A DNA stretch of 64,000 bases from a virus, in IMG/VR virus record IMGVR_UViG_3300049436_000052, positions 137,433 through 201,432 of that record; one strand, written 5' to 3'. Of this stretch, positions 19,986 through 40,263 are shown in pieces. The notes under the pieces were generated by a model. It worked only from the letters and a program-made list of their open reading frames with translations. It had not been told where the DNA came from and searched no databases. The translations under genes and the position numbers were made by a program. Each line of letters begins with the position of its first letter. Position 1 is the stretch's first letter.

Positions 19986-21356
19986 ATGAAAGAAAAAATT
20001 AGAATATTATTTCATACACTGGATCAGGCTGGTGTTCAGTACTTTAGAGTATTATCGCCATCAATTCAACTTGATAATGATCATTCAGAAAATTTTTATG
20101 TAGAAATTAACAATGAAATTGATTTTAAAAAACCTGAAACATTGGATTATTTAAAATCTTTTGACATTATTCATTATCATCGTCAACTCTTGCCAGATAC
20201 AAGACAAATGGTTTTTCTTGCTGAAGAATTACGAAAGTCAGGTGTGGTGCTGGTTGTAGATAATGACGATTTCTGGAGACTAAATTTAGAACACCCTCTA
20301 TATCAGCTACATAGAGAAAAGAAATTAGAAATACCCATTATTGAAAATTTGAAAATTGCAGATTATGTTACAACAACAACTGAATTATTTGCGAAAGAAA
20401 TTCGTAAAGTAACTGGTAAAGATAATGTAATAGTATTACCAAACGCAATTGAGCCTGAAAATATGACTCAGTTTAAAAATAACTGGAAACCAGATCCTGA
20501 AGGTAAGGTTAGAATAACATATTCTGCGGGAAGTTCACATCTAAATGATTTACAACAACTTAAAGGCGTTTTTAATATATTACATGCTAATCCAGAAATA
20601 AAAGACAAGTTCAGGATTACCCTTGCAGGGTTTGATTGTATGGGCACTACTCAAACTATAGAATTTAATCAAAAATTTTCTGAAGAATTACAACAAAGAA
20701 ATCTATGGACACCACAAATAGTTAAATTTATTAATAAAACCAGAGGAAATGTTGATATGATTCCAAGACTTCCTGATGATCTAAAAAATAAATATAGAAA
20801 TAATGTTTTTACAGTCAAAGAACGAGACATTAAATCAGAAGAAAGTGTTTATTTTGAATATGAAAAAATATTAACAGATAATCATAACATTATTGAGAAT
20901 AAAGATTATTTAAGGTGGTTAATGAATTTTGAAAGAAATGTTGATTATCCATTTGGAGAACAAATTTATAAAAGAATATGGACACAAAAAGCAAATATTT
21001 ATGCCAAGGTTTTAGACCAAGCCGATATTGTACTTTCTCCACTTGCAGATAATGAATTCAACCATTATAAGAGCAATTTAAAGCAAGTCGAGTGCTGGTC
21101 AAGAAAACTACCCATAATATGTTCGGGAGTTTCTCCATACATTGAAGATGGTAAACATATGGAAAATTGTATATTAATTCCACCAAAGAAAAATGCACAT
21201 CAGGATTGGGCAAAATGGTTGAAGAGATTGATATTAGATAAAGATTTGAGAGAAAAACTTGGAAATCAATTATATGAAGATTTTAAGGAAAAATATCATT
21301 TGGCAAATGTAACAAATAAACGTGCAGAGTTTTATAAATCGATTATTAAAAAATAA
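19986..21356 (+). CDS. GT-B (GT4-like) glycosyltransferase with internal insertion
   Basis: VDNDD, ADYVTTTT, VIVLPNAI, ADIVLSPL..NEFN.YKSNLKQVE, LPIICS, LREKLG. Confidence 0.85.
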   Translation: MKEKIRILFHTLDQAGVQYFRVLSPSIQLDNDHSENFYVEINNEIDFKKPETLDYLKSFDIIHYHRQLLPDTRQMVFLAEELRKSGVVLVVDNDDFWRLNLEHPLYQLHREKKLEIPIIENLKIADYVTTTTELFAKEIRKVTGKDNVIVLPNAIEPENMTQFKNNWKPDPEGKVRITYSAGSSHLNDLQQLKGVFNILHANPEIKDKFRITLAGFDCMGTTQTIEFNQKFSEELQQRNLWTPQIVKFINKTRGNVDMIPRLPDDLKNKYRNNVFTVKERDIKSEESVYFEYEKILTDNHNIIENKDYLRWLMNFERNVDYPFGEQIYKRIWTQKANIYAKVLDQADIVLSPLADNEFNHYKSNLKQVECWSRKLPIICSGVSPYIEDGKHMENCILIPPKKNAHQDWAKWLKRLILDKDLREKLGNQLYEDFKEKYHLANVTNKRAEFYKSIIKK

Positions 21357-23251: not shown

Positions 23252-23731
23252 ATGAAAAATATCGAAAACGCATCAGAACAAACTTTAAAAGTTTTTACAA
23301 AAGTAAGAATTAATACATCAATTCCACAATGGGTAGAATTTGAAGTTCTATCAAACAACAAACAAAAGCAATTATATAAAATTGCTAAACTTAGTGAAGT
23401 TAGTGAATTCATTCTTAATGAAAATCTTTCAAATAATTTAAATTTTTCTATTGTCATCAACGAAGAAATTTTTGATGGTTTAACAGAAGAACAAAAAGAA
23501 ATGGTTTTTGAAGAATGTTTAACTGGTGTTGTTGTTAATCAGGATAATGATAAACTTTCTTTGAAAAAACCTACATTCAATACCTATTTTGGAATATTGA
23601 AGAAATATGGAAATGATACAACTGTAGTTCTACATGAATCTATTAAATCTTTGTTTGATAATAAAAAAGCAAAAGATGATCAAATAAAAGCTGAAACTGA
23701 AAAAGTAAAAGCTAAGAAATTTAGGGGGTAG
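23252..23731 (+). CDS. Putative phage metallopeptidase-like protein lacking HExxH histidines
   Basis: FSIVINEEIFDGLTEEQKEMVFEECLTGV resembles the phage metallopeptidase family, with EECLT where HELxH is expected. Confidence 0.45.
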   Translation: MKNIENASEQTLKVFTKVRINTSIPQWVEFEVLSNNKQKQLYKIAKLSEVSEFILNENLSNNLNFSIVINEEIFDGLTEEQKEMVFEECLTGVVVNQDNDKLSLKKPTFNTYFGILKKYGNDTTVVLHESIKSLFDNKKAKDDQIKAETEKVKAKKFRG

Positions 23732-25122: not shown

Positions 25123-25149
25123 TTAATCCTAATAATATCTTTTTTTCAG

Positions 25150-25184
25150 AAAATCCTAATCATATAACGTGGTTAGGATTTTTT
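25150..25184 (+). terminator. Intrinsic terminator
   Basis: AAAATCCTAATCA...TGGTTAGGATTTT followed by a T tract. Confidence 0.8.
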
Positions 25185-25193
25185 GTTTTTTAA

Positions 25194-25217: not shown

Positions 25218-25616
25218 ATGAGATCATATAATATCAATTTCCCACTTAATGATGATGTTAACACCAATACATTCTTTTTGACTACAAAGACAACAAAGGA
25301 TGCATATACATCAAATTTATTATTGTTGTTATTAACACAAAAAGGTGAAAGATATTATATGCCTGATTATGGAACTGATTTACTTAAATTTATTTTTGAA
25401 CCGAACGATGATCAGACAGCAGTTGAAATTGAAGATGAAATTAAAAGAACAGTATCGCTTTATATTCCAAGTCTTCGAATTAATTCAATAATATATAGTC
25501 GGGATGTTGATGAAGATGGTAATGAAATTTCGGATAATCAATTAAGTGTAACCGTTAATTTTACATTCGTTGAAGATAGTTTTAATGAAAACGGTAGTTT
25601 AACAATTAATTTTTAA
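25218..25616 (+). CDS. Baseplate wedge protein, T4 gp25/GPW-like
   Basis: LLLLLTQKGERYYMPDYGTDLLKFIFEP..EIKRTVSLYIPSLRI is the gp25 family signature. Confidence 0.9.
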   Translation: MRSYNINFPLNDDVNTNTFFLTTKTTKDAYTSNLLLLLLTQKGERYYMPDYGTDLLKFIFEPNDDQTAVEIEDEIKRTVSLYIPSLRINSIIYSRDVDEDGNEISDNQLSVTVNFTFVEDSFNENGSLTINF

Positions 25617-25656: not shown

Positions 25657-27495
25657 ATGGCAGACAATAATATAAAATACTCATCCAGAACATTTTCGGA
25701 GATAAAATTTGACCTTATAAATTATATAAAATCCGCATATCCTTCTGTTTTACAAGACTTTAGCGATAGTAGTGTGGGGTCAATTTTATTGGATATAAAC
25801 TCTTCTGTAGCTAACAATCTATCAATTAATACAGATAAGATCTTTTTAGAGACACAACTTGAAAATTCGACCCAAAGAAATTCATTATTAAATATTGCAA
25901 AGAACATGGGGCTGAATCTCCCTGCCAAACGTCCTAGTGTTACTATTTGCGATATATTGGTAACTGTTCCTGTAAAGGGAAATCAACCAGATTCTACTTA
26001 TTACCCAATACTTGAGGCGGGGGCACAAATCATTGGAGGATCTAAAATTTTCGAAACGCAGAATAATATAGATTGGAATAGTTCGGTAAGTGATTTAGGA
26101 GATCCAAATAGGTCAATAATTCCTAATTTGGATTCGAATGGTGTTATTGTTAGTTATAATGTAACCAAGAGAGAGGTTGTGATAAATGGCACTTCAAATA
26201 TTTATAAAAGGATTATAACAGATGCAGATATTTTTCCGTTTTTCACAGTAACGTTACCAGATTCAGATGTTATTGAGATTGAAAGCGTGATATTGTTGGA
26301 AGGGACAAATTTTTCGACAAATCCATCTTTAAGTGATTTTAATAATAATGATTATAAATATTTTGAGGTTGATTATTTGGCACAGCAAAGAGTTTTTGTT
26401 GAAGATACAGAAAATTCAAGTTCAATCACAAATACAAATAATATTAAAGCTGCTAGATGGATTGATGTTACAAGGAAATTTATTAAAGAATTTACATCAA
26501 ATGGATATTGTGTGTTGACATTTGGTTCGGGTGATGCTGAAACGAATGCATTTAAAGAAGGATTTTTAAAGGAAGGTGTGAGTAATAGGGCATTTCTTGA
26601 TAATTTTTTAAACAATACTGCTTTGGGTGAAAAACTAAAACCAAATTATACATTGTTTATCAGATATAGAACTGGTGGTGGAAGTAATTCGAATGTTGGA
26701 GCAAATATTTTAACAAGTTTTGGAAATTATAATTTGAGGGTTAATGGTTCAAGATCTGATTATAATCAAAATGTTCAAAGAAGTATTAAAGCAACAAATC
26801 CAATTCCTGCAATTGGTGGAAATGATGGCTTAACAATTGATCAGATTAGAAATTTAATTAAATATAATTTTTCCAGTCAAAACAGAGATGTAACATTGAC
26901 AGATTATTTGTTACAATTATATAAAATGCCTGGAAAATTTGGATCACCATTTCGTGCAAATGCTTTTAAGCAAAATAATAAAATTGTTTTATCAATACTT
27001 GGAAGAGGTTCTGATGGAAAACTATCAAATACAAGCAATACCCTATTAAAAGAAAATATTGCTGAATATTTAACACAATATAGAATGGTAAATGATTATA
27101 TTGAAATAAAAGATGGAAAAATATATAATTTAGCTTTTGATGTTGATGTTTATGTTGACAATATTTTAAATAATCAAATTGCCGCAAATATTATTGCAAC
27201 TGTTAGAGACTATCTTGATATTAATAAATATGAAATGAATCAAGATATTTTTATTAGTTTATTACAAAAAGAAATTTCGAAAGTTAATGGGGTTATTAAT
27301 GTTATTTCAATAAAAGTTTATAATAAAGTTGGTGGATTATATTCGACAAATGTTATTTCTCAAGAAATTTTAGATACTGTAACTGGTGAAATAAAAATTA
27401 TTAACAATACGATTTATTCTGATGAAGAATCATTATTTGAAATAAAAGTACCTGAAAAGGATATACGTGTTTATTTGCGTAAATCAACAACATAA
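25657..27495 (+). CDS. Baseplate wedge protein, T4 gp6/baseplate-J-like
   Basis: RTFSEIK..YPSVLQDFSDSSVG..., YRTGGG..NVGA, NPIPAIGG.D..TIDQIR, VTLTDY. Confidence 0.85.
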   Translation: MADNNIKYSSRTFSEIKFDLINYIKSAYPSVLQDFSDSSVGSILLDINSSVANNLSINTDKIFLETQLENSTQRNSLLNIAKNMGLNLPAKRPSVTICDILVTVPVKGNQPDSTYYPILEAGAQIIGGSKIFETQNNIDWNSSVSDLGDPNRSIIPNLDSNGVIVSYNVTKREVVINGTSNIYKRIITDADIFPFFTVTLPDSDVIEIESVILLEGTNFSTNPSLSDFNNNDYKYFEVDYLAQQRVFVEDTENSSSITNTNNIKAARWIDVTRKFIKEFTSNGYCVLTFGSGDAETNAFKEGFLKEGVSNRAFLDNFLNNTALGEKLKPNYTLFIRYRTGGGSNSNVGANILTSFGNYNLRVNGSRSDYNQNVQRSIKATNPIPAIGGNDGLTIDQIRNLIKYNFSSQNRDVTLTDYLLQLYKMPGKFGSPFRANAFKQNNKIVLSILGRGSDGKLSNTSNTLLKENIAEYLTQYRMVNDYIEIKDGKIYNLAFDVDVYVDNILNNQIAANIIATVRDYLDINKYEMNQDIFISLLQKEISKVNGVINVISIKVYNKVGGLYSTNVISQEILDTVTGEIKIINNTIYSDEESLFEIKVPEKDIRVYLRKSTT

Positions 27496-27507: not shown

Positions 27508-28155
27508 ATGGAATTGATTAAAAAAACAATATTGCTTGCAACTACTACAGGTACTACAACTGGATGCACACATTGTTATGTAATTATACCAGATTTAACA
27601 GCTTTATATCATTTTAAAATTCAGTTATCACAAAATTTATTGGATTGCGCTTTTTTTGATGCTTATGAATATGATGGTGATTTAACTGGAACTACAATAA
27701 ATAATGTTACATATACAATAACGGGTGAATGTCAAAGTAGGTTAAGTGAATTAAAAAAATTTAGTCAAAGTAGTTATTTTGCAAATCAATATCTTGGAAA
27801 CGGATCATTTATTAATGATGGTGTTGATTATTTAAATTCGATTCAAAATATGAAAGTAGTTTATTATATTGGTGGTATAAGATATATTGATAATATTAAT
27901 GGTGATACAACAAAAACAACTTTTTATTTTACTAGAACAGGTTTTTCTGATTTGGATTTTATTAATAAACCAATTATAAAAAATAGTAATAAGGATAGAA
28001 TTATTAGTAATCCTAAAATAAACAATGATGTATTTATAGCAAGACAAGAACTATCAGCATTTCTTGACAATTCTAAATTAGAATATTTTGATAAATTAGT
28101 TGATTTAGAAACATATGCAGGTGGTAAATATTTTTACATGATTGATAATTCATAA
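27508..28155 (+). CDS. Putative baseplate/tail structural protein
   Basis: In the baseplate operon; TGTT motifs. Confidence 0.6.
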   Translation: MELIKKTILLATTTGTTTGCTHCYVIIPDLTALYHFKIQLSQNLLDCAFFDAYEYDGDLTGTTINNVTYTITGECQSRLSELKKFSQSSYFANQYLGNGSFINDGVDYLNSIQNMKVVYYIGGIRYIDNINGDTTKTTFYFTRTGFSDLDFINKPIIKNSNKDRIISNPKINNDVFIARQELSAFLDNSKLEYFDKLVDLETYAGGKYFYMIDNS

Positions 28156-28170
28156 CAAAAAAATAAAGAA

Positions 28171-29088
28171 ATGAGTATAGGGGTATTAGGGACAATAAAA
28201 CCAAGCGATGTAAATATTAATGACATTGATATTTATTATAATTATACACCAAATAGAGAAACAAACAATAATGATATTTTAAAAATAGATGATCCAAATT
28301 CATTATTGTCATACTGTTATTTGCCAGAAACAGATGGTAATTTTATTGCTGGAAATGAAAACATTTTAGATGGTTTATATAACTTAACACTTCCTGCAAC
28401 AATATTTAATCAATTAGGAATTTATACAATTTATATAAAACCTAAAACAATAACCACAACAATAATTGATTGTAGTGTATTGTCTTCACTTCCAACAGTA
28501 AAAGGAATAGTATTGGATTCAAATTTATTACCAGAAAATTTAAGAACAAATAATGCATTACAAGGTTATAGGGTTGAATATATTGATACAAGTGGAAATA
28601 AACTAAGAAATGTTGTAAGATATGTAGTAACCTCAAACAAAGTTGTTCCAATTTCTGAAAACATTGGAAATACTTCTCAAAAATCTATTAGATATAGATT
28701 TGATGATAGTGGAACATTAATATTTCTACAAGTAAGTCCTAGTTCTTCATCTGATGTTAAAGCAAATGTCTATCCATTCATTGGAATAGCAGGACAAACA
28801 ATTTTAATTTCAAATACATTTTTTTCTCCATTAACATTAGAAATTGAAATGGTTGAAAATACACTTGATAGTTTAAGTGGATTCATAACTGGAAATCAAG
28901 CATTTGATTTAACAAATGGTATTAAAACTCATTATGACCCTAACAATAACAATGCAATCACATATCAATATAATGTTTTTGAAATTAAAGATGATGTTGG
29001 AAATGTACCATTATATAATGTTGTTGAAAAAAGAACCAATATCGATAGTTCACAAGATTTTGATCAAATTGTTAGCGATATTTTATAG
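28171..29088 (+). CDS. Putative structural protein
   Basis: 305 aa, beta-rich, in the baseplate operon. Confidence 0.6.
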   Translation: MSIGVLGTIKPSDVNINDIDIYYNYTPNRETNNNDILKIDDPNSLLSYCYLPETDGNFIAGNENILDGLYNLTLPATIFNQLGIYTIYIKPKTITTTIIDCSVLSSLPTVKGIVLDSNLLPENLRTNNALQGYRVEYIDTSGNKLRNVVRYVVTSNKVVPISENIGNTSQKSIRYRFDDSGTLIFLQVSPSSSSDVKANVYPFIGIAGQTILISNTFFSPLTLEIEMVENTLDSLSGFITGNQAFDLTNGIKTHYDPNNNNAITYQYNVFEIKDDVGNVPLYNVVEKRTNIDSSQDFDQIVSDIL

Positions 29089-29116
29089 AATAGTATAAAT
29101 TTTCATAAAAATATAT

Positions 29117-29148
29117 AAAAAATCCTGTCAATTTTGATGGGATTTTTT
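29117..29148 (+). terminator. Intrinsic terminator
   Basis: AAAAAATCCTGTCA-ATTT-TGATGGGATTTTTT. Confidence 0.8.
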
Positions 29149-29157
29149 GTTTTCAAC

Positions 29158-29167
29158 GTATTTATAA
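29158..29167 (+). promoter_or_regulatory. GTATTTATAA putative late promoter
   Basis: Exact motif 15 nt upstream of GTG 29183. Confidence 0.75.
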
Positions 29168-29182
29168 TAAAAATTTCTAATT

Positions 29183-32100
29183 GTGGGAAAAGTAAAAGTT
29201 GTTAATAATAAATTAGATTTAAACTTAATAGGAGAATCTCCATCCGAAACAATATTTCAATTTGGAACATTTTTCGTTACTTCTAATTTTGATGGTAAAA
29301 AAACTAAAGATTATTCAGATCAATTGAGTAGTTTTGTAACGCCAATTACATTAAAGACATTAAACGTTTCTGAAACGCAATTAGATGTATTGAATGTTAA
29401 AACTAATAAAGTAGTATTAAATTTAGACAAATCTGATTTAAAAACATTTGTTAGATTTGGTTCAGCATATGAATTTTTCAGAATATCACTTCAAAACGTT
29501 ATTGTTAATTATCCAGGGAGTTTATTTGTAAATTCACAAGTAGTTAGAGGTGGTAATGTGACATTTAGTGGATTTACCTATAATCCATTGACAAACAAAT
29601 CACAAATAACAATTCCACTAAATGCTGTTGTAAATAAATTTGGTTTAATCGTTGATTATGGAAATACAACAGAGCCAGATAATATCGCATTAAAAAATTT
29701 AAATACATCCTATAATAAATATATTTTATGGACTTCATACACTCCAACAGATAATACACATACAATATTAGGGTTTACTGGTTTTACAAAAAATAATGGT
29801 GTTTTAATACTTGAAGTTCTTGGAAATCCTCTTCCAATGATGACAGGTACTAGCGGAATATTAGATTTTCATATTAAACCAACTAATTATGTTTTTGAAG
29901 AATTTAGAACAATATTGGATTATTATGAAAAATATATTGTATCTGAAAGAAGTGCTGACAATAGTGGGTTTGTTTTTGTAGTTAAAGATCCAACTTTACT
30001 TGATAATGGAACAATAAACTATGTTAATACAACAGTTTCATGGCCAACAACGGATAAATATAATATTGATATTGATAATTCGAATTATGATAATTTGTTA
30101 AGAATTTTATTAAATATAGGTAGTAAATATGATGAGATAAAAACAAATTTAATATCAAGATTTTTAACACCAACATCAATAAAAACCTATGATTTAACAC
30201 AAGAAGGAAAAGTTGATAAATTACTAAAAATATATGGTCATGAATTTGACATAATGAGACAATTTATTGATTCTATAGCATATATCAATACGGTTACATA
30301 TAATAAAGTTAACAATATTCCAGATCAGATTGTAAATAATCTTGCAAGAACGTTTGGTTGGAAATATTTTTCATTGTTGAATGAAAGTGAATTGGTAAGT
30401 AGTTTTTTGACAATTGATGAAAATGAAAGAAATACAAACACTGATTTATTACCATCTGAAATTGATATTGAATTATGGAGAAGAATTTTAATTAATACTT
30501 CTTATTATTGGAAAAGTAAAGGAACTAGAGACGCTATTAAATCAATGTTTTTGTTAATAGGAATACCAGAACCATTTATAAACATAACTGAATATGTTTA
30601 TACTGTTAATGGAAAAATAGATCCAAGAACACAAACAATACCACAAGCATATTTTCCAACAAATTCTTTTCCATATAATAATGATGGTTATCCTGTTGCT
30701 CCATTGGAGACAAATAGTTTCTTTTTTCAAGTTTCTGGTGATACTGATAATGGACAAACATATATGAATGTATTTCGTCAAGCAGGTTTTAATTTATTGA
30801 GAACAGTTGACAATAAAAAATCATGGATTCAAACAGGTGCAACAACAAGATCACATTCAACAACCCCCCAATATTATCAAGAAGATAGTAAACTTATAAT
30901 TAATACTAAGGAAATTGATGTTGCATTAGACACTGCTCGTGGAATTGAATATGATGTCTATAGATATATTAAAGAACAAGACTTTCCAGCAAATTCAAGT
31001 GGATATACAATACCATTTAATTATATTAACATTTCTTTAGGTTATACATTAAGTGCAAATACATTTACATTACCATTTACTCCAGAGGGTGATTTTGAAG
31101 TTAGATATAATGGAATTTTGTTAAATGCACCTAAAACGGGAACGACTAGTGGTATTACATATCAAAGTGATTATATTGTAAATGGAAATCAATTTACTTT
31201 AAATTATCCAGCATATTATACAAACAATAATAGAGATGTAATTCAAGCAACATATGTTTATTCAGGAGGCACTACAACACCAATTAGTGGGGTTACTGTA
31301 AAATATGTTGTTACCAGAGTAAAGGCTAATATAACAGGTACAATTGTTCCATTACCATCAAATGCAAATGGTGACATACAAGTAACCATTAATGGTATTG
31401 CATTAACTAAAGGAACTAACCAATTTACTGCTGATTATATTATTGATCCAAATAATAGTGGACAAATTATAATACAAAATCCTGAAATTATTTCATATTT
31501 AGCAATCCCAGAAAATAGTTATGTTCAGGTTGTATATATAACAGTAACAGGAAGCACAAGTATTGCAGCACGTAATGAATTGTTAAGGATCGATAGTTTT
31601 AATACTAGTAAATTATATTTTAGTTCAACAGCTAATAAATATGTTTATAAACTTAATTATAAAACAAAAAGTGCTAATGAAATAAAAATATTGATAAATG
31701 GTATTGCAATCGAACCATTAACTGATTATACTTTAAACAATAACAACCCATATGAAATATATTTACCAAATGGTTTAAAATATGGAGATGTGATAAGTGT
31801 TTATTATTTGATTGGTGGTTCTGATTATTTAAATCCTGTTATTAGTAACGATTTTGGAATTGGTGACATTTCAAATTTATCTTTTCTTGAATTTATCGAG
31901 CTAATTCAAAGAAAAATGATTAATGCAACAAATAGAAAAATTGTTACAGACTATAGTGGTGGTTGGTATCCAACATTATTAAAAATTTATATAACATATC
32001 TTGAAAGAGCAAATTTATCAACAACAGATCCACTAAGATCTAATGGATATACTTTTGAAAATTTATATCCGTTTTTGAGCAAATATAATGCTTTTTTTCA

Positions 32101-32857
32101 AAAATTTGTTGATCAATTATTACCAGCAACCATTATTTTAAGGAAAAGTGGCTTATTGATTAGAAACAGTATATTTACAAAACAAAAATTTACATATAAA
32201 AGAGGAGTTAATTTTGATAAAACAATTAATTATTTTGGTGATGATGGTAGTTTGTTTCTTAAAAGACCATTAACTAAAATAGTTAGTTGGACTAGTGATC
32301 ATGTTTGTGTTGATGAATTATGTAAAAATTTAATCATATCTGGCATTACAATTACATATCCAACAACCACCACCACAACTACATTATCACCATATACAGC
32401 AGTAATTGTATTTAATTCAACAATAACCCAACAATATATATCAACCCCAAATAATAGTGGATATTATCGAAAATATGATATTGATCTTCAATTTAATCCA
32501 GAAATAACGCCAACATATGTAGTTAATATGAATTTGAATTCGAATGTATTTTTAAGTGGTGCAACAAATATAAATGATTCTAGTACTGTTGTCTTATCAT
32601 TATATAAAAATAATATTATTACAAATACAACAATATTTAATCAATCTGGCACTACAGACAATGATCAAGTAATTTCAATTGAGAATGGTGATTTAATTAA
32701 AATTATTATTGAAAATACTGCATTAACAACAGGTGTTAATTTGATCGATACGGAAATAACATTAACACCAACAATATTAAGTGTTTCTCCAAATGGTGGT
32801 GAATTTACATTAATACCAGAATCAATAACTAATACTATTAATTCTTCAGGAATATGA
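29183..32857 (+). CDS. Large baseplate wedge/tail protein (gp7/gpI-like motif) with beta-sandwich insertions
   Basis: YYWKSKGTRDAIKSMFLLIG resembles the wedge 'KGT' motif; repeated V.YNG/V.ING..L..DY segments; C-terminal poly-Thr linker. Confidence 0.65.
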   Translation: MGKVKVVNNKLDLNLIGESPSETIFQFGTFFVTSNFDGKKTKDYSDQLSSFVTPITLKTLNVSETQLDVLNVKTNKVVLNLDKSDLKTFVRFGSAYEFFRISLQNVIVNYPGSLFVNSQVVRGGNVTFSGFTYNPLTNKSQITIPLNAVVNKFGLIVDYGNTTEPDNIALKNLNTSYNKYILWTSYTPTDNTHTILGFTGFTKNNGVLILEVLGNPLPMMTGTSGILDFHIKPTNYVFEEFRTILDYYEKYIVSERSADNSGFVFVVKDPTLLDNGTINYVNTTVSWPTTDKYNIDIDNSNYDNLLRILLNIGSKYDEIKTNLISRFLTPTSIKTYDLTQEGKVDKLLKIYGHEFDIMRQFIDSIAYINTVTYNKVNNIPDQIVNNLARTFGWKYFSLLNESELVSSFLTIDENERNTNTDLLPSEIDIELWRRILINTSYYWKSKGTRDAIKSMFLLIGIPEPFINITEYVYTVNGKIDPRTQTIPQAYFPTNSFPYNNDGYPVAPLETNSFFFQVSGDTDNGQTYMNVFRQAGFNLLRTVDNKKSWIQTGATTRSHSTTPQYYQEDSKLIINTKEIDVALDTARGIEYDVYRYIKEQDFPANSSGYTIPFNYINISLGYTLSANTFTLPFTPEGDFEVRYNGILLNAPKTGTTSGITYQSDYIVNGNQFTLNYPAYYTNNNRDVIQATYVYSGGTTTPISGVTVKYVVTRVKANITGTIVPLPSNANGDIQVTINGIALTKGTNQFTADYIIDPNNSGQIIIQNPEIISYLAIPENSYVQVVYITVTGSTSIAARNELLRIDSFNTSKLYFSSTANKYVYKLNYKTKSANEIKILINGIAIEPLTDYTLNNNNPYEIYLPNGLKYGDVISVYYLIGGSDYLNPVISNDFGIGDISNLSFLEFIELIQRKMINATNRKIVTDYSGGWYPTLLKIYITYLERANLSTTDPLRSNGYTFENLYPFLSKYNAFFQKFVDQLLPATIILRKSGLLIRNSIFTKQKFTYKRGVNFDKTINYFGDDGSLFLKRPLTKIVSWTSDHVCVDELCKNLIISGITITYPTTTTTTTLSPYTAVIVFNSTITQQYISTPNNSGYYRKYDIDLQFNPEITPTYVVNMNLNSNVFLSGATNINDSSTVVLSLYKNNIITNTTIFNQSGTTDNDQVISIENGDLIKIIIENTALTTGVNLIDTEITLTPTILSVSPNGGEFTLIPESITNTINSSGI

Positions 32858-33771
32858 AATTTGTAATAGCACTTCCAGATTGTGATTATTATTTGTGGCA
32901 AATGTTGGTTCAAATCAATAATTTTAGAAAACTAGGATTCGAAGAAAATACTATATATTTAATAGGAAAAACATCAATTCAAACAAGTTCAACATTACTA
33001 AAAATAATGAATGGTGGAATTAGATCAAGTTTTTTTATTTTTAATGATTTACGAATAAATCCAAGATATTCACCATCATTAAAACCATATCTAATGAAAT
33101 GTTTTATTGAACAACATCCTGAAATAAAAAATGAAGTATTTTTCTTTACAGATCCAGATGTTATATTTACTAAAAAAATAAAATTTTCTGATTCTGAAAC
33201 AAATAACAATGTTTGGTATATGAGTGATACACAATCATATTTAAACAGTACATATATTAAAAGTAAGGGTCTGGAGTTGTTTAAAGAAATGTGTAAAATT
33301 GTTGGTATTGATGAGGAACTTGTTGAAAAAAACGATAAAAATGCTGGTGGTGCACAAATAATTGTAAAAAATACAACTAGCGATTTTTGGAAAAAGGTTG
33401 AATTGGATAGTGAGAATTTATATATACACATGATTGAAACATCAAATAAATATAATCCAAAACATCCAATTCAAGCATGGACTGCTGAAATGTGGGCAAC
33501 ACTTTGGAATGCTTGGCTATTTGGACACGAAACTAAAATTATAAAAAAAATGAATTTCTCATGGGCGACAGATCTAATTAACAAATGGGATGAAAGTTCT
33601 ATTTATCATAATGCTGGTGCTGTTGTTGAAAATGGTGACTATTTCTTAAAAAGTAAATATCAAAGATCACCATTTAATTTAGATTTAAAAATTACTAATA
33701 AATATTGTTCATTTAATTACGTTAAAGAAATTAAAGAAACAGAAAAGAATTTTAATAAAATATTGTTTTAA
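32854..33771 (+). CDS. GT-A glycosyltransferase resembling plant hydroxyproline O-arabinosyltransferase / peptidyl-serine galactosyltransferase (GT95/GT96)
   Basis: YYLWQ, YSPSLKP, FFTDPDVIF (DxD), GGAQIIVK, AWTAEMW, HNAG parallel HPAT's YNKWQ, YVVLNRP, EPDHVF, GNSPVII, GWVLEMY (recalled from memory, by-eye alignment). Confidence 0.7.
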   Translation: MKFVIALPDCDYYLWQMLVQINNFRKLGFEENTIYLIGKTSIQTSSTLLKIMNGGIRSSFFIFNDLRINPRYSPSLKPYLMKCFIEQHPEIKNEVFFFTDPDVIFTKKIKFSDSETNNNVWYMSDTQSYLNSTYIKSKGLELFKEMCKIVGIDEELVEKNDKNAGGAQIIVKNTTSDFWKKVELDSENLYIHMIETSNKYNPKHPIQAWTAEMWATLWNAWLFGHETKIIKKMNFSWATDLINKWDESSIYHNAGAVVENGDYFLKSKYQRSPFNLDLKITNKYCSFNYVKEIKETEKNFNKILF

Positions 33772-35612
33772 TGGGTGTATCAAGAAAATATAATTTAAAT
33801 ATTAGTGATGTTATGAGTTGTGGTATTGGATCTGTTACTGGTAATACAATTACTTGTAGTATTTTAGATCCGTTTAGTGTTACATATGATACTAATCCAC
33901 CAACAATTTGTAATTATCCATTAATTAATTTAGATGATTTAAAAGCATTATCAACCATAAATTATGAAAATAGAATTTCGGATTTAATCAATAAATTACA
34001 AATAGAAAATGAATCATCAAAAGAAAGTTTAATTGAAGATGCTCAATATGAAGAGCTAGATTGTGATTATAAAAGTGATTTAAGTACTAATTTCATTGTT
34101 TACAAATTTTTAAGCGGAATTAGAATAATAAATGCTGGAAGTCCAAGTGGAATTATTGAATATAAAGTATATCCTGTTGGCGGAGATCCAAATAATTATC
34201 CTTGGGTAACAAATCCAACGTTCTTAAACTTAGATCCAGATGGAATATATATTGTATTAATTAGAGATAATTTAAATAATCTAATATTAGATACTCATAG
34301 TACAACCATATCAATGCAACTATTACTTCCAAGTACTACAACCACATTGGCAAGTAAAACAATATCTTTAAATCAGATTAATACATCAACATCATTATTT
34401 TCAGCATATAAAAATGGATGTGTTCAAATCAATCCACAATTATCTTCGTTTGAAAGACTTGAGATTGATTTTACTACGAACACAATAATTAGTGGTTGTG
34501 GCGAATTTTCATTAACATTTACATGTAAACCAAATAATTCATCTCAATTTTATCCTTATTGTAATATTGTAAAGAATACAGTTGGAACATCTTCTTCTTC
34601 TGGTAATTTATCTATTGAATATGGCGATACTGTTTGTTATAATATAATGGGAACTAATAACGCATATGGATCAACGGTTTGTGGTGATTTTTGTATAAAT
34701 AATGTCAATGGATTAAATACTGTCAATCCAATAATTGATATTACAAATAATTGTTCAACAATAGTTAAAATAACCCAACCATTAGATATTGTAGTCAGTT
34801 TGAGTGGTATTACAACCACCAATACAACAAATTCACAAATTGTTAATGGTGTTGTAAAATTTTCACAATCAATACCTAATGGTGAATTTATTAATATTCA
34901 ATTTTCAGCAGCTAATTCAGTTAGTGCTAGTGGTACTTTTTCATCAACAGAAATTTTTAGAAAAAGAACAATTGATTCAAATTATGTTAGTCAATGTGTT
35001 ATAGGTAATATTTGTTCACAACCACAAACATTAAATTTAATTGCATGTAATGGAGATAAATATTGTTTTAATATGGTTATTAATTTAATTTCTGCTGGAA
35101 ATACTGGAACTAATAGTATTTCAATAACAAATATAAATAGTTCTAGTGGGGTGTTGTCTTCAATATCAACAGGTAATACAATTTCATTTACAAAATCAAT
35201 ACCAATACCATCTGTAGTTTTTGGTGTTTGTAGGCAAAATTCAACACCATCATCTTCAAATGGTTATTTTAATATTACACCATCATTACCTAATGGAGAA
35301 TATGTAACATTAGGATTTCAAATTAATCAAGACTTATTCGGATCTTCATCATCAAATATTAGTTATTATTGTAAACCTAATGGCTGTGCTAATTTTGTTT
35401 TGAAATGTCAATATAGTCTTTCATCATCTTGTTCTAATACTTGTAATCGAAATGGAAATATAACTATTAATAGTGGCGATTGTTTATGTTATACGAATTC
35501 ATTAAGTAATAAGATAGTATCTCAATTTACGTTTACTACAATATGTAGTAGTTCTGGAATTTCTCCATCTATATGTAGTGGAAAAAATGGTGATTATTTA
35601 TTATGTACATAA
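33771..35612 (+). CDS. Cys/Ser/Thr-rich putative tail-fibre/virion protein with three repeated modules
   Basis: TAATG-coupled to the GT gene; STTTT linker, then three ~125-140-aa beta-rich modules. Confidence 0.6.
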   Translation: MGVSRKYNLNISDVMSCGIGSVTGNTITCSILDPFSVTYDTNPPTICNYPLINLDDLKALSTINYENRISDLINKLQIENESSKESLIEDAQYEELDCDYKSDLSTNFIVYKFLSGIRIINAGSPSGIIEYKVYPVGGDPNNYPWVTNPTFLNLDPDGIYIVLIRDNLNNLILDTHSTTISMQLLLPSTTTTLASKTISLNQINTSTSLFSAYKNGCVQINPQLSSFERLEIDFTTNTIISGCGEFSLTFTCKPNNSSQFYPYCNIVKNTVGTSSSSGNLSIEYGDTVCYNIMGTNNAYGSTVCGDFCINNVNGLNTVNPIIDITNNCSTIVKITQPLDIVVSLSGITTTNTTNSQIVNGVVKFSQSIPNGEFINIQFSAANSVSASGTFSSTEIFRKRTIDSNYVSQCVIGNICSQPQTLNLIACNGDKYCFNMVINLISAGNTGTNSISITNINSSSGVLSSISTGNTISFTKSIPIPSVVFGVCRQNSTPSSSNGYFNITPSLPNGEYVTLGFQINQDLFGSSSSNISYYCKPNGCANFVLKCQYSLSSSCSNTCNRNGNITINSGDCLCYTNSLSNKIVSQFTFTTICSSSGISPSICSGKNGDYLLCT

Positions 35613-35625
35613 ATTTTAAATTATT

Positions 35626-35635
35626 GTATTTATAA
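35626..35635 (+). promoter_or_regulatory. GTATTTATAA putative late promoter
   Basis: Exact motif 11 nt upstream of ATG 35647. Confidence 0.7.
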
Positions 35636-35646
35636 AAAAAACATAA

Positions 35647-37857
35647 ATGGCATTTATTGGTAAAAAAAACCCAACAGTTCTAAATATAAAACTAACTTCA
35701 AAAGGTAGAGAATTACTATCTGAAGGTAAGTTAACATTCAATTATTTTGCATTAGGTGATAGTGAAATTGATTATAATTTTAATTCTTTAGCACAATTAA
35801 ATCCATTTTATAATCAAATATTAAAACCAGTAGATGAGAATCCAAATATTATATCATTTATTCCAAAAACAATTTCAGGAGATCCATATAATTTTATATC
35901 AAACGTTTCATCAGTTCCAACAATTGTTCAAAATAATGCAAATAGTATTGGGTTTTTTAATATTACTGGCAATAGTGTTAGTTTTTTAACAGATGGGGAT
36001 CATGTAAAACAACCAGATGTCATGATTAAAGTAGATAATCTTACAGGTGGTACTTTATTGGAATTATTTAAAGCTCCGACATATTTAGCCAATGTTAACG
36101 AACCTAGTGTTGGTGATTTTATGTTGGTTAAGTGGTCAAATAAATACGACATAACAAGCGGAACAACTGGTTATAATATTGATTTATCAAATCCAAAACC
36201 AATTTTGGTATATAAAATACAATCAATAATATCTGGATCGTTATTCAACGATAATTTAATTGTTGAAGTTGACAGAGAATTGCCTAATTTTAGTGGTATT
36301 ACTGGAACAACAAATGTAAATGTAGGTGCAATAATATTTTATAATTATATTAATTTTACTGGAGATACAATATATAACGATTATTCAACCAATTATGAAA
36401 ATGAGAGTGTATTGGCATTTTTACAAAACTGCCAATGTCCTACGATAACGTTTCCATTTTGGAATTTATCTATTGTATATATTGATGAAATTATTGGAGT
36501 TCAAACAGACAATAAGAAATTTCAAAAATTTTCATCTAATTTATATGGTGGTTTTGTATCATACATACAAAATCAAAAACCCGTTTTTAACAAATTAGGA
36601 ATAATTCATTATTCTAATTTTTCTCCTTCCAATACATATGGTGAAGAACTTTATGTTAATACTGTTGATAATAATGTACCTATATTAGACATACCAACAA
36701 TAATGTGGCATAAATCATCAACAAATTTGATGGGTGTTAAATTAAAAGCAATTAACACACTAAAAACATTAACTGGTGAAACCAAATCACTAAACATTTC
36801 ATATTATGATTTGGGTGATTTAGACGGAAATGTTGTTGGAAAAGTATTTCCAAGTTTAAAAGTATTTGTTATTGAAGATCAAGAATTACTTTTTGCATTG
36901 TCTTACAAATCAAATAGATCTTGGACTTTACCAAATTATAGTGTGGGAACAAATGATAATATTGTAATTGGATGTCCAACATGTTCAATAGACTTTGATG
37001 TTACAGTAACAAATCCGACTAGTCTTATTAGTGGAAATGGATCTTTATATATTGATAATATTGTTAATCAAATTACTGGAAGTAAGTTAATTTTAGATGT
37101 TAGTGGTTTAACTAGTGGTCAAATTTATTTTGATCAAATAGTAGCAAATGCATTAATTGGCAATTTAAGCGCTGATACATATAGTGTGACAATACATGAT
37201 TTGGGTGCATTAAATTGTCAAGGAAAAACAATTGTAATGTCTAATCCAACAAGTATATTATCTATTTATAATACTGGAACAACTCAAAGTGGTTTAGATC
37301 CTGATTTTGAATTATCTATTATTAATCCTACTACTATTAGAGTTTATTTAAATGACATTGGAACTATTTATGGAACTGGTTATACTCAAATAGTTTCATA
37401 TGGAGCTACTGCACCAATATCTTATTTAACAATTGGAACATATCATGAATTCAATAATCTAACATTCTTAAATCCATATACTATATATGTTAAAGATAAA
37501 TATACTGGATCGACGGAATTTATAATAACTAAAGACTATGTTGCTGCTGGAAATCCTTTAAATAGTAATTTTATTGTTTCAAATCAGATGGTAGATAGTG
37601 GTGGTACATATGTCATACTAACTAATTATTTAACAACGATAAATCCAAGTGTAAATCCAATTATTGGAACAATTGAATTTAGTGCATATGAATCAACATC
37701 AGTTCCCTCAAGTTGGGAAGTGTTGCCAATTGGAGATCCTAATGGAACTTCGAAAAAAATATATATAACTGGAACTAGAAATTATACTGTTTCAGTAAGA
37801 GAGAGATATCAAACAATTGAAATGTATAAGTTTACAAAAACAACAATAATAGTGTAA
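35647..37857 (+). CDS. Putative baseplate/tail protein
   Basis: N-terminal LTSKGRELL..G.LTFNYFALGDSEIDY is a typical phage baseplate/collar N-terminus; C-terminal Ig-like segments. Confidence 0.6.
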   Translation: MAFIGKKNPTVLNIKLTSKGRELLSEGKLTFNYFALGDSEIDYNFNSLAQLNPFYNQILKPVDENPNIISFIPKTISGDPYNFISNVSSVPTIVQNNANSIGFFNITGNSVSFLTDGDHVKQPDVMIKVDNLTGGTLLELFKAPTYLANVNEPSVGDFMLVKWSNKYDITSGTTGYNIDLSNPKPILVYKIQSIISGSLFNDNLIVEVDRELPNFSGITGTTNVNVGAIIFYNYINFTGDTIYNDYSTNYENESVLAFLQNCQCPTITFPFWNLSIVYIDEIIGVQTDNKKFQKFSSNLYGGFVSYIQNQKPVFNKLGIIHYSNFSPSNTYGEELYVNTVDNNVPILDIPTIMWHKSSTNLMGVKLKAINTLKTLTGETKSLNISYYDLGDLDGNVVGKVFPSLKVFVIEDQELLFALSYKSNRSWTLPNYSVGTNDNIVIGCPTCSIDFDVTVTNPTSLISGNGSLYIDNIVNQITGSKLILDVSGLTSGQIYFDQIVANALIGNLSADTYSVTIHDLGALNCQGKTIVMSNPTSILSIYNTGTTQSGLDPDFELSIINPTTIRVYLNDIGTIYGTGYTQIVSYGATAPISYLTIGTYHEFNNLTFLNPYTIYVKDKYTGSTEFIITKDYVAAGNPLNSNFIVSNQMVDSGGTYVILTNYLTTINPSVNPIIGTIEFSAYESTSVPSSWEVLPIGDPNGTSKKIYITGTRNYTVSVRERYQTIEMYKFTKTTIIV

Positions 37858-37859
37858 AT

Positions 37860-38786
37860 ATGGCAGATATTAGATTTAAAATAAGTGGTAATACAAATCC
37901 TTTTATAGCAAAATTGTGGAATAGTGGATGTACTGCACTATTACAACAAAAATCAATTGACTATTCTGGAACGTGTGTTATATTTGGAGGATTAGACGCT
38001 AATACATACTATAATGTTTCCATAAACGATAAAATAGATACAATATATTCCAAACAATTTTTAACACCAGCACCAATAACACCTTCAATATTACCAACAA
38101 AATATGTTTGTTTAATAGGTACTCTATATAATTCAAGCGATTATGTTCAACAAATATCAAGTCCAAAGGAATTGTTTATATCACCAATATTATCAACTGG
38201 TGAATGTGTTGATGTTAAATTAAGGATTAATACAACAAATTATTCTAATACCCAAAACAGTATAACTCTATATTGTGGGGGTGTTGCACTATCACCAGTA
38301 TATTCAAATTCAGGACAACAATATAAAACAATAAATATTAAACCAAATGATAGTATTTGTTATACAATGACAACATATGCCACATCATCTCCAGGCGTTC
38401 AATTCTCTGGTACATCCAATATTGAGATTATTGGAACAACAGGACATAATATCACATCTTTAATCTCTTCAACATATTATTCCAAATCAACGTGTTTGTC
38501 GATATCAAATACTGGATCAATATCAGCAAATCAAACAATATTTGTATTATCACCAAGTAGTATTTCTTATAGTTTACCAATAATAATAACTTCAACACAA
38601 ATGTGGGAAATTGATGTAACAACAGTTCCTTCATGGATTAATTATGCATTTGTTGATGGAAATAGTGGAGATAGTCCAGATTTATTTGTTCAAGCAAATG
38701 ATACACCTAATCTAAGAAATGCGATGGTTAAAATTTGGTTAAAAAATAATCACAATATATTTGTTGTAATTAATATCACAATTTAA
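37860..38786 (+). CDS. Putative virion protein: fibronectin-like N-terminus, Pro/Thr linker, module shared with 33771, BACON-like C-terminus
   Basis: FGGLDANTYYNVSI; TPAPITP; WEIDVTTVPSWINY..GNSG..VQANDT..RNAMVKI (BACON-like). Confidence 0.55.
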   Translation: MADIRFKISGNTNPFIAKLWNSGCTALLQQKSIDYSGTCVIFGGLDANTYYNVSINDKIDTIYSKQFLTPAPITPSILPTKYVCLIGTLYNSSDYVQQISSPKELFISPILSTGECVDVKLRINTTNYSNTQNSITLYCGGVALSPVYSNSGQQYKTINIKPNDSICYTMTTYATSSPGVQFSGTSNIEIIGTTGHNITSLISSTYYSKSTCLSISNTGSISANQTIFVLSPSSISYSLPIIITSTQMWEIDVTTVPSWINYAFVDGNSGDSPDLFVQANDTPNLRNAMVKIWLKNNHNIFVVINITI

Positions 38787-38793
38787 AAATAAT

Positions 38794-39495
38794 ATGGCAA
38801 GCGTTAAATATACGATAGTTAATGGAGGAGTTCCTTTTAAAGTAGAACTAATACCTAGTTCAATTCCAGCTAATATGCATAATTCTGTTGGACAATTTGA
38901 ATTTTTAAATGTTCCAAATGGTTCGTATGTTCTAACAATTACAGATGGAAATGAATGTGTTTTTGAGGAACAAATAACTGTCGATCCTTCAGTTACAACA
39001 ACTACTACAACACAAATACCAAGTAATTCTATTGTAGTGGGTCAAACAAATGATACTAATGTAATTTTTAATGAAGATGGAACAAATAGAGATAGTCATT
39101 ATAGTGGATATCCAGATGTAAATACTTCTACAATATACTTATGGTTTAAAACATATGATGGTTTTCCAATAACTAATCAAAAAACGTTACAATATTCATT
39201 AATTGGAGATAGTGGAACAACTTTTAGTTTTAACAGTTTAAGTGATGAAATTCATTGTGAGGTAATTGAAAATATAAATAATGCACCATCAATTAGTGGC
39301 AATATAATATTAAAATCAGGATTTATTGAAACATATTTTGAATATACATATATGAAAAATCCATTAATTCCAGACTATACTATTAATTTAACTACAATTG
39401 AAAATATATTTTATAACGGTCTTGAATTGACTGGTGGAACAAATCAATATGGTATTACATATAATACCAATAATAATATAATAATGAAATTTTAA
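38794..39495 (+). CDS. Putative virion protein with poly-Thr linker
   Basis: FLNVPNGSYVLTITDGNEC (SprB/Ig-like) followed by VTTTTTTQIP. Confidence 0.55.
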   Translation: MASVKYTIVNGGVPFKVELIPSSIPANMHNSVGQFEFLNVPNGSYVLTITDGNECVFEEQITVDPSVTTTTTTQIPSNSIVVGQTNDTNVIFNEDGTNRDSHYSGYPDVNTSTIYLWFKTYDGFPITNQKTLQYSLIGDSGTTFSFNSLSDEIHCEVIENINNAPSISGNIILKSGFIETYFEYTYMKNPLIPDYTINLTTIENIFYNGLELTGGTNQYGITYNTNNNIIMKF

Positions 39496-39507
39496 GTATT
39501 TATTCTC

Positions 39508-40263
39508 ATGGCAGCAGGTTATACGGTATTTTTTAGTTATTTATTAGAATCAGATTCTGGAAATACAACAGGATTTGGTTATAGTACTGCAATTCATTGT
39601 AATTATATTAATCAGATTTATTTAGATAATATAACCAATAAAGAAGTTAATATATATTTTAATGATGTTGATGATTTTAAATTTCTAAGTACTACTGGAG
39701 ATACTGGATATACAATAAATAAAATATATATTTTAGTACAGTTAATTAACAATTCATTATATTCTAACCTGAGTGATGTAAAACCAACATCAAACGAATG
39801 GAAAAAATATGATGTTACAACTCAAATTAGTGGTTATACAAGTGGACAACTTTTATCAGCAATTGATTTGAGTAGTGTTGTTTTTAAAGTTCCACTGTAT
39901 CTATATTATAATGAAACATTAATGCCAACATATGATTTAAGTTATTTAAATTATCCATTAGTTAGTCAAACAGGAACAACAGCATTAGATACTCCATTAT
40001 GTTTTGGTGATGAACAATATTTTATTGGAAATGTCACAACAGACATTCAAGCAGTCGCATATACAACAGACTTAGTTATAAATTTACCTATAAACGAATT
40101 TAATTCATCAACTAATGAAAGTTGGGATCAAGATAAAGTATATATTACAGAAATTGGATTATACGATTCAAATAAAAATCTTGTTGCAATTGGGAAACTG
40201 AATAACCCACTTCCAAAAGATTCAACAATTTCCCGAACAATTGTATTTGGAATTGATTTCTAA
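39508..40263 (+). CDS. Tail-collar/baseplate-like structural protein
   Basis: C-terminal VYITEIGLYDSNKNLVAIGKLNNPLPK resembles tail-collar fibre (DUF3751-like) motif; GTATTTATT motif at 39496. Confidence 0.65.
   Translation: MAAGYTVFFSYLLESDSGNTTGFGYSTAIHCNYINQIYLDNITNKEVNIYFNDVDDFKFLSTTGDTGYTINKIYILVQLINNSLYSNLSDVKPTSNEWKKYDVTTQISGYTSGQLLSAIDLSSVVFKVPLYLYYNETLMPTYDLSYLNYPLVSQTGTTALDTPLCFGDEQYFIGNVTTDIQAVAYTTDLVINLPINEFNSSTNESWDQDKVYITEIGLYDSNKNLVAIGKLNNPLPKDSTISRTIVFGIDF

Follow-up and report, generated by a model that had tools for sequence, protein, structure and literature searches.

The locus and its genes

The window analysed here is a 64,000-nucleotide stretch (bases 137433-201432) of the 334,326-bp IMG/VR virus record IMGVR_UViG_3300049436_000052, which CheckV rates as 100% complete; coordinates are window positions unless stated otherwise. 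Its G+C content is 25%, and its carrier is a jumbo phage, relatives of which are represented by contigs spanning 327-365 kb. The subject of this study is gene P0001, which encodes a glycosyltransferase (GT) of predicted GT-A fold and which likely O-glycosylates short poly-threonine (poly-Thr) tracts in neighbouring virion proteins. The results below come from in silico work and cover the predicted fold, the conserved DxD motif, family membership, gene neighbourhood and the joint occurrence of enzyme and poly-Thr tracts. The principal features of the locus, with coordinates and strand, are:

32854..33771, + strand: glycosyltransferase gene P0001 (305 aa), predicted GT-A fold, phrog_4417 member, structurally nearest to GT95/GT96
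33151..33159, + strand: codons of D100-P101-D102, the invariant DxD, presumed divalent metal and nucleotide-sugar binding site
32854..32857, + strand: ATGA overlap of the transferase start with the stop (TGA) of the upstream gene
33769..33773, + strand: TAATG overlap of the transferase stop (TAA) with the start of the downstream gene
29183..32857, + strand: upstream structural protein P0317 (1224 aa), presumed main acceptor; the N-terminal ~1040 aa are conserved and are followed by a poly-Thr linker and then, at the C-terminus, a beta-sandwich that varies
32363..32383, + strand: T7 linker, T1061-T1067 in YP-T7-LSPY (codons ACA ACC ACC ACC ACA ACT ACA), presumed O-glycosylation site
32399..32842, + strand: C-terminal beta-sandwich of P0317, ~residues 1073-1220, predicted local distance difference test score (pLDDT) ~90
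33771..35612, + strand: downstream Ser/Thr/Asn/Cys-rich structural protein (613 aa, 24% Ser+Thr, contains PSTTTT), a possible further acceptor
38794..39495, + strand: 233-aa protein of the same operon, with the only other poly-Thr run of the genome
38995..39012, + strand: T6 run, T68-T73 in DPSV-T6-QIPS, recurring at the same place in relative L006
25218-40263, + strand: gap-free gene string (baseplate/fibre operon), intergenic gaps of at most 95 nucleotides
25218-25616, + strand: gp25-like gene, opening the string
25657-27495, + strand: gp6-like baseplate wedge gene, second in the string
25147-25185: terminator-like hairpin (17 pairs, then a T-run), directly 5' of the gp25-like gene

The P0001 open reading frame (ORF) is the sole long frame at its position. 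Both start/stop overlaps, which an earlier sequence-only reading of this stretch had pointed out, are present at the two junctions and suggest that the transferase gene is translationally coupled to both of its neighbours. The string runs from the gp25-like gene and the gp6-like wedge gene through two small ORFs and the 1224-aa ORF to the transferase gene and five further Ser/Thr-rich ORFs. The hairpin at its 5' end probably marks an operon boundary, and no terminator-like hairpin was found inside the string. A sigma-70 promoter scan was uninformative, returning fewer sites than shuffled sequence, and megablast of the region against deposited phages gave no match. The same earlier reading had described the downstream gene as Ser/Thr-rich, which is borne out by comparison with the ORFs of the whole genome (~11.6% Ser+Thr), and had labelled the upstream gene as a wedge gene, which is not established: the upstream protein has no match in Pfam or PHROGs, and its gene is the third after that of the gp6-like wedge. 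ESM Atlas look-ups of the upstream and downstream proteins returned nothing usable.

A predicted GT-A fold closest to plant GT95 and GT96

The AlphaFold (AF2) model of P0001 (pLDDT 97.3; predicted template modelling score, pTM, 0.93) consists of a single Rossmann-like alpha/beta/alpha GT-A domain, in which a beta-strand begins at residue 2, the DxD comes right after strand 95-99, and no membrane segment is visible. The model and the invariant DxD together uphold the assignment as a GT-A fold glycosyltransferase. In a Foldseek search against Swiss-Prot AlphaFold models, the top nine matches are SGT1 and HPAT/RDN/PLENTY/NOD3 proteins (E 5e-12 to 2e-8; template modelling (TM) score 0.59-0.69), led by Arabidopsis SGT1 (E 4.9e-12, TM 0.65, 14% identity) and including HPAT1/2/3, PLENTY, RDN1/2 and NOD3 (E 3e-11 to 3.5e-10, TM 0.65-0.69, 15-18% identity) as well as Chlamydomonas SGT1 (E 1.7e-8); GT8-type proteins rank next, at TM 0.43-0.52. 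Among the fold clusters of the AlphaFold Database (AFDB), the protein's own family comes first (TM 0.87-0.92), followed by eukaryotic 'HPAT-like domain' clusters (TM 0.6-0.68), and the ESM Atlas agrees on these fold kin while adding DUF7164 and PqqD-HPAT fusions.

At the sequence level the link is far weaker. Identity of P0001 to the plant enzymes is only 12-18%, and the Pfam HPAT hidden Markov model (HMM; PF23452, curated cut-off 23.9 bits) has no match to P0001 at E<=0.1, none in the whole phage genome at E<=10, and none in three bacterial genomes carrying family members or in 401 Pseudomonadota genomes; it matches 2 of 56 relatives, weakly (best E 1.3e-4). We therefore place P0001, within the GT-A fold, in a family that is sister to GT95/GT96 and not in either of the two. 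The earlier description of the protein as GT95/GT96-like thus stands as regards the nearest named folds and falls as regards membership, and 'eukaryote-like enzyme' is misleading for a protein whose own family is very large and made up of phage and bacterial members. Going by the predicted models, GT95 and GT96 are, with good confidence, its nearest characterised structural kin.

The plant GT95 enzymes (HPAT1-3, RDN1/2, PLENTY and NOD3) share with P0001 a GT-A fold with DxD, matching over nearly the whole protein, and act on hydroxyls of extended, repetitive peptide segments, as the phage enzyme would. They differ in having an N-terminal membrane anchor, which the phage protein lacks, and in their acceptor, which is hydroxyproline (Hyp) in plants, made by prolyl hydroxylases of a kind that the phage genome lacks, and would be Thr in the phage. 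The closest functional analogy would be SGT1/SERGT1 (GT96) of Arabidopsis and Chlamydomonas, which O-glycosylates Ser in repetitive structural proteins; it is a secretory-pathway membrane protein of ~750-800 aa, whereas P0001, 12-14% identical to it, amounts to no more than a catalytic domain of 305 aa. Searches of the PDB found no solved structure for plant GT95/GT96 enzymes. The retaining GT8-type enzymes of solved structure (LgtC, 1g9r; glycogenin, 1zcu/3u2t; Skp1 alpha-galactosyltransferase, 6mw8; GlyE, 5gvv) are 9-11% identical to P0001, which has no Pfam Glyco_transf_8 match, and among predicted models GT8 ranks clearly below GT95/GT96. Because all the closest solved folds are retaining enzymes, P0001 would be expected to act by a retaining mechanism as well.

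A widespread family of hypothetical proteins

PHROGs assigns P0001 over its full length to phrog_4417, a group of unknown function (E 4.7e-72), residues 1-297 aligning with positions 1-292 of the 293-position profile. No meaningful match was obtained with P0001 or the family profile in Pfam, NCBIfam or PDB sequence searches, the matches of the profile to TALE repeats being spurious, low-score repeats. The family comprises at least 790 clusters at 50% identity (E<=1e-3) and is found at 595 or more loci in IMG/VR, at 134 loci in species-representative bacterial genomes and in 77 deposited phage genomes, every one of which annotates it as hypothetical.

All five motifs named in the sequence-only reading are present: YYLWQ at residues 12-16 (YxxWQ), LKP at 76-78, DPD at 100-102, GGAQ at 165-168 and WTAEMW at 209-214 (WxxEMW). 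In an alignment of 56 family sequences, W15, D100, D102 and G166 are invariant, as are Y72, Y129, F235, H252, G255, F264, K266 and P273, and at least 90% conservation is seen for Y12, Q16, A167, Q168, W209, M213 and W214. LKP is weakly kept, the family consensus at its site being PSxRP. Their conservation marks these motifs as family signatures and not chance, and P0001 is almost certainly a real gene of a real GT-A enzyme family. That family is probably wider than sequence searches show, since Orf49 of the Lactobacillus myophage LP65 (342 aa; BFVD entry Q5ULR5) has the same fold (TM 0.77) at an identity of only 19%.

Ser/Thr tracts next to the transferase gene

Gene order was surveyed at positions -6 to +6 around the transferase gene in 58 dereplicated viral loci. 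The -1 gene lies on the strand of the transferase in 98% of them. In 30 of the 58 loci its product has a 30-aa stretch with a Ser/Thr content of 70% or more, as compared with 25 of 478 cases at the other positions (Fisher p 2e-18). Across loci, the -1 gene encodes either a major tail or major head protein with a poly-Thr tail, or a fibre-like protein that carries mucin-like linkers, the repeats being of the TTTSTTTSTTTP(V/T)P kind. Specifically, in Bacillota prophages the -1 gene encodes a major tail protein, a major head protein or a protease-capsid fusion, each with a pure poly-Thr tail at its end, and the PHROGs tally of -1 proteins lists phrog_88 (major tail protein) 13 times alongside several major head families and head maturation proteases. 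In Enterococcus phage phiFL1A, the family member gp51 directly follows the major tail protein gp50, and in Lacticaseibacillus phage iLp84 the family member iLp84_9 sits between capsid and connector genes; cultivable phages with the family further include Lacticaseibacillus phage PLE3 and Chryseobacterium phage MA9V-3. In a Pseudogracilibacillus prophage (L139:5630-5995), the -1 protein has 122 aa, with a short folded N-terminus and then ~65 residues of TTTSTTTKP-type repeats, and may be a dedicated glycosylated decoration protein.

On the other side of the gene, the +1 position in environmental loci is often occupied by GT6 (seven times), GT2 (seven times), GT11, GT32, GT34, GT7C, a methyltransferase or a radical-SAM enzyme, and GT2, GT25 or methyltransferase domains occur as fusion partners in some members of the family. 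Such fusions and neighbours fit an initiating enzyme followed by extending and tailoring enzymes. Among the +1 genes of loci L013-L103 (L013:8928-9680 and others), GT6 in seven loci and GT11, a fucosyltransferase, in one would, together with the family member, be an enzyme set for histo-blood-group-like virion glycans. No second transferase gene adjoins P0001 in the present phage. A second glycosyltransferase of 456 aa (19986-21356; phrog_7162, weak C-terminal match to GT4/Glycos_transf_1) is encoded 11.5 kb upstream, outside the operon, and might either lengthen the glycan or have a different role.

A quick maximum-likelihood tree of 129 family members resolves four groups, in which a poly-Thr/Ser neighbour occurs in 19 of 24 members of the Bacillota prophage clade, 32 of 48 of a large environmental viral clade, 11 of 17 of the clade holding the window protein and other large phages, and 2 of 37 of a Bacteroidota chromosomal clade of 500-590-aa fusion proteins. 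The clade of the window protein joins the Bacteroidota clade weakly.

Gain and loss of the enzyme were scored among 47 IMG/VR homologues of the upstream protein that are 58-66% identical over the first ~1026 residues. Nine loci have the poly-Thr run together with a transferase gene within 2-12 nucleotides, none has the run without a transferase, 35 have neither, and three lack the run and carry a transferase elsewhere in the locus. In these three, the transferase gene lies directly 3' of another fibre gene, one with a long (TS)n linker. The Fisher p of the association is 1.6e-7, a value that overstates the independence of the 47 loci. Taken together, the Ser/Thr tracts at -1 and the co-occurrence of enzyme and poly-Thr run point strongly to O-glycosylation of the phage's own baseplate and fibre proteins, as the sequence-only reading had proposed.

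Candidate acceptors and donor in this genome

T7 and T6 are the sole runs of at least five Thr in the genome, where 0.04 would be expected (523 ORFs, 97,118 aa, 5.3% Thr). Both fall in the baseplate/fibre operon, T7 in the gene directly upstream of the transferase gene. The codons of T7 are mixed, and the run is therefore not a pure DNA repeat. In the structural model, T7 directly precedes the confidently folded C-terminal beta-sandwich, a fold resembling carbohydrate-binding modules and adhesin tips, to which its matches are weak. Nine homologues of the upstream protein (44-60% identity) keep T1063-T1067 invariant, with varying flanks and a highly variable following domain, and in more distant homologues the run extends to 25-40 residues of T/S/P.

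Hydroxyproline, the plant HPAT acceptor that the earlier reading had mentioned, is not borne out: no prolyl-hydroxylase-like gene (2OG-FeII_Oxy_3) was found in the complete 334-kb genome, in a search whose controls matched, making a Hyp acceptor unlikely, with a host enzyme as the remaining possible source of the modification; the data indicate the poly-Thr linker instead. A phage-encoded pathway for a special nucleoside diphosphate (NDP)-sugar was likewise rejected. The genome has no nucleotidyltransferase (NTP_transferase) and a sub-threshold epimerase-like match only (genome positions 103696-104094), so the donor is probably a host sugar nucleotide.

A proposed mechanism and its alternatives

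From fold, conservation and gene context we infer that P0001 is catalytically active on Thr, with a retaining mechanism, a host donor and a biological effect. It would be a soluble, cytoplasmic, metal-dependent GT-A glycosyltransferase, made late together with the baseplate and fibre proteins, that uses the DxD and a divalent metal to hold an NDP-sugar, H252 possibly being a third ligand. Before or during assembly, a first sugar would pass from a host nucleotide-sugar to the hydroxyl groups of Thr residues within short poly-Thr runs of virion proteins. T7 (residues 1061-1067), the linker between the conserved body of the upstream protein and its variable beta-sandwich, would be the chief target, with the T6 run of ORF 38794-39495 probably a second one. 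The expected outcome is a glycosylated, stiffened and protease-shielded hinge beside a probable receptor-binding tip.

That P0001 O-glycosylates poly-Thr tracts of neighbouring virion proteins is, on the fold, conservation and gene context, the reading that we consider likely, and several observations weigh against it. Some 30-48% of the loci of the family have no dense Ser/Thr tract at -1. The nine loci with both run and enzyme share one short type of C-terminal module, and the co-occurrence within the jumbo-phage clade may thus amount to one or two cassette exchanges. The T7 tract is only seven residues long and could be a plain flexible linker, and the Pfam HPAT model fails to match P0001. 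A complex predicted for the enzyme and a peptide from the upstream protein (residues 1035-1095) scored 0.00 and speaks neither way.

An alternative that retains virion O-glycosylation places the true sites at dispersed Ser/Thr residues of several fibre proteins, either at [S/T]GxT motifs or in the Ser/Thr-rich downstream protein, with the poly-Thr runs as mere linkers. The motif count in the earlier reading is upheld, [S/T]GxT occurring 39 times in the eight structural ORFs of 27508-40263 as against a single time in the rest of the window's ORFs, and the Ser/Thr-rich downstream protein is coupled to the enzyme gene by its start/stop overlap. Set against this, the partner that recurs across the family is the upstream poly-Thr or mucin-like tract and not SGxT, which may just mirror the beta-rich repeat composition of fibre proteins. 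Nothing here ties SGxT to the enzyme, the data pointing to the poly-Thr linker, and we regard dispersed sites as unlikely.

Many phage glycosyltransferases modify non-protein acceptors, such as host envelope glycans or phage DNA. P0001 might accordingly act on a host envelope polysaccharide or teichoic acid, in superinfection exclusion or receptor masking, or on modified phage DNA; GT-A folds take many substrates, and WbbM and LgtC, both enzymes with glycan acceptors, are among the nearest solved folds. Yet the gene sits amid late structural genes and overlaps them, the adjacency of Ser/Thr tracts is position-specific, gain and loss of the enzyme go with the poly-Thr module, no membrane segment is visible, and the bacterial kin lie in clusters resembling those for ribosomally synthesized and post-translationally modified peptides (RiPPs), not in polysaccharide clusters. 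Glycosylation of DNA was rejected as a candidate, the genome having no thymidylate-synthase-type hydroxymethylase and glycosylated hydroxymethyl bases being therefore unlikely. All told, a non-protein acceptor appears improbable.

It is most improbable that P0001 is a catalytically dead GT-A fold serving the neighbouring fibre protein as assembly chaperone or minor virion component: a chaperone gene often comes after a fibre gene in phages and the coupling to structural genes is tight, but the DxD, His252, Lys266, GGAQ and WxxxMW show little or no variation across relatives of 33-74% identity, and a chaperone would not readily account for the frequent fusions with, or placement beside, other glycosyltransferases and methyltransferases.

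Relation to known virion glycosylation

The system closest in function to poly-Thr glycosylation by P0001 is the virion glycosylation of mycobacteriophages, GT96 and GT95 being closest in fold. According to work cited in PMC12619734, mycobacteriophages Che8, Corndog and Myrna encode glycosyltransferases that put O-glycans on extensions of virion proteins. The two systems are alike in pairing a phage glycosyltransferase with a dedicated Ser/Thr-rich tag on virion proteins (here T7 in the upstream protein and T6 in the same operon), a likeness that is closer in the Bacillota relatives, where the family follows major tail or capsid genes ending in poly-Thr. They differ in that the present case has another enzyme family, a poly-Thr tag and a jumbo-phage carrier. 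In addition, the target here would be an internal hinge of a baseplate or fibre protein and not the C-termini of capsid or tail-tube proteins: the genome of this phage has no other poly-Thr runs. To our knowledge, phage virion glycosylation has so far been shown solely for actinobacteriophages. Freeman et al. 2023 (Cell Host Microbe 31:1216) reportedly treat mycobacteriophage virion glycosylation. Full-text literature searches found nothing linking GT95/GT96, DUF7164 or a phrog_4417-type family to phages, and no description of poly-Thr glyco-tags in Gram-positive phages; within the open literature searched, the suggestion that this is an undescribed system holds.

Hundreds of phages show the pairing of transferase and Thr tract, so a sugar coat on the particle is probable for many phages. 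If the family is the initiating enzyme, such virions would be common among phages of Bacillota, environmental phages (probably of Bacteroidota) and jumbo phages, and this would matter for host recognition and the stability of virions, for mucus adherence, and for how the immune system recognises therapeutic phages. In the present phage the presumed tag lies in a hinge ahead of the variable distal domain, where a glycan might influence how the receptor is bound or how well proteases are resisted. The plant GT95/GT96 enzymes would also gain small soluble microbial relatives for structural and mechanistic work, and the minimal pair of enzyme and poly-Thr tag could serve glyco-engineering.

Bacterial relatives and minor observations

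Chromosomal family members in Chitinophaga adjoin genes for a C39-peptidase ATP-binding cassette (ABC) exporter, HlyD, LanC-like and radical-SAM proteins, and are not in polysaccharide loci. At two such loci (L090:2577-10104 and L114:2403-8824), a 580-aa fusion of the transferase domain with a Glyco_transf_7C-like domain stands beside the exporter, LanC-like and radical-SAM genes, in what looks like an undescribed glycosylated-RiPP cluster of Bacteroidota. This RiPP-like setting and the PqqD-HPAT fusions suggest that the whole clade works on peptides.

A broader and distinctly tentative proposal, which we hold to be rather doubtful, is that phrog_4417 and plant GT95/GT96 form one ancient clade of peptide-directed GT-A transferases that read simple hydroxy-amino-acid tracts. 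Its settings would be the poly-Thr tags of phage capsid, tail and fibre proteins, RiPP precursors (in Bacteroidota, and PqqD-fused) and the Ser/Hyp repeats of plant walls. A short poly-Thr run with its enzyme would then be a portable 'glyco-tag' for chosen virion parts in phages of many phyla, jumbo phages included, and such a prokaryotic or viral ancestor may have given rise to the eukaryotic enzymes.

Shortly 5' of the baseplate operon, the window also holds a 159-aa ORF (23252-23731) that matches Pfam PhageMetallopep, a putative phage metallopeptidase (E 1.4e-7).

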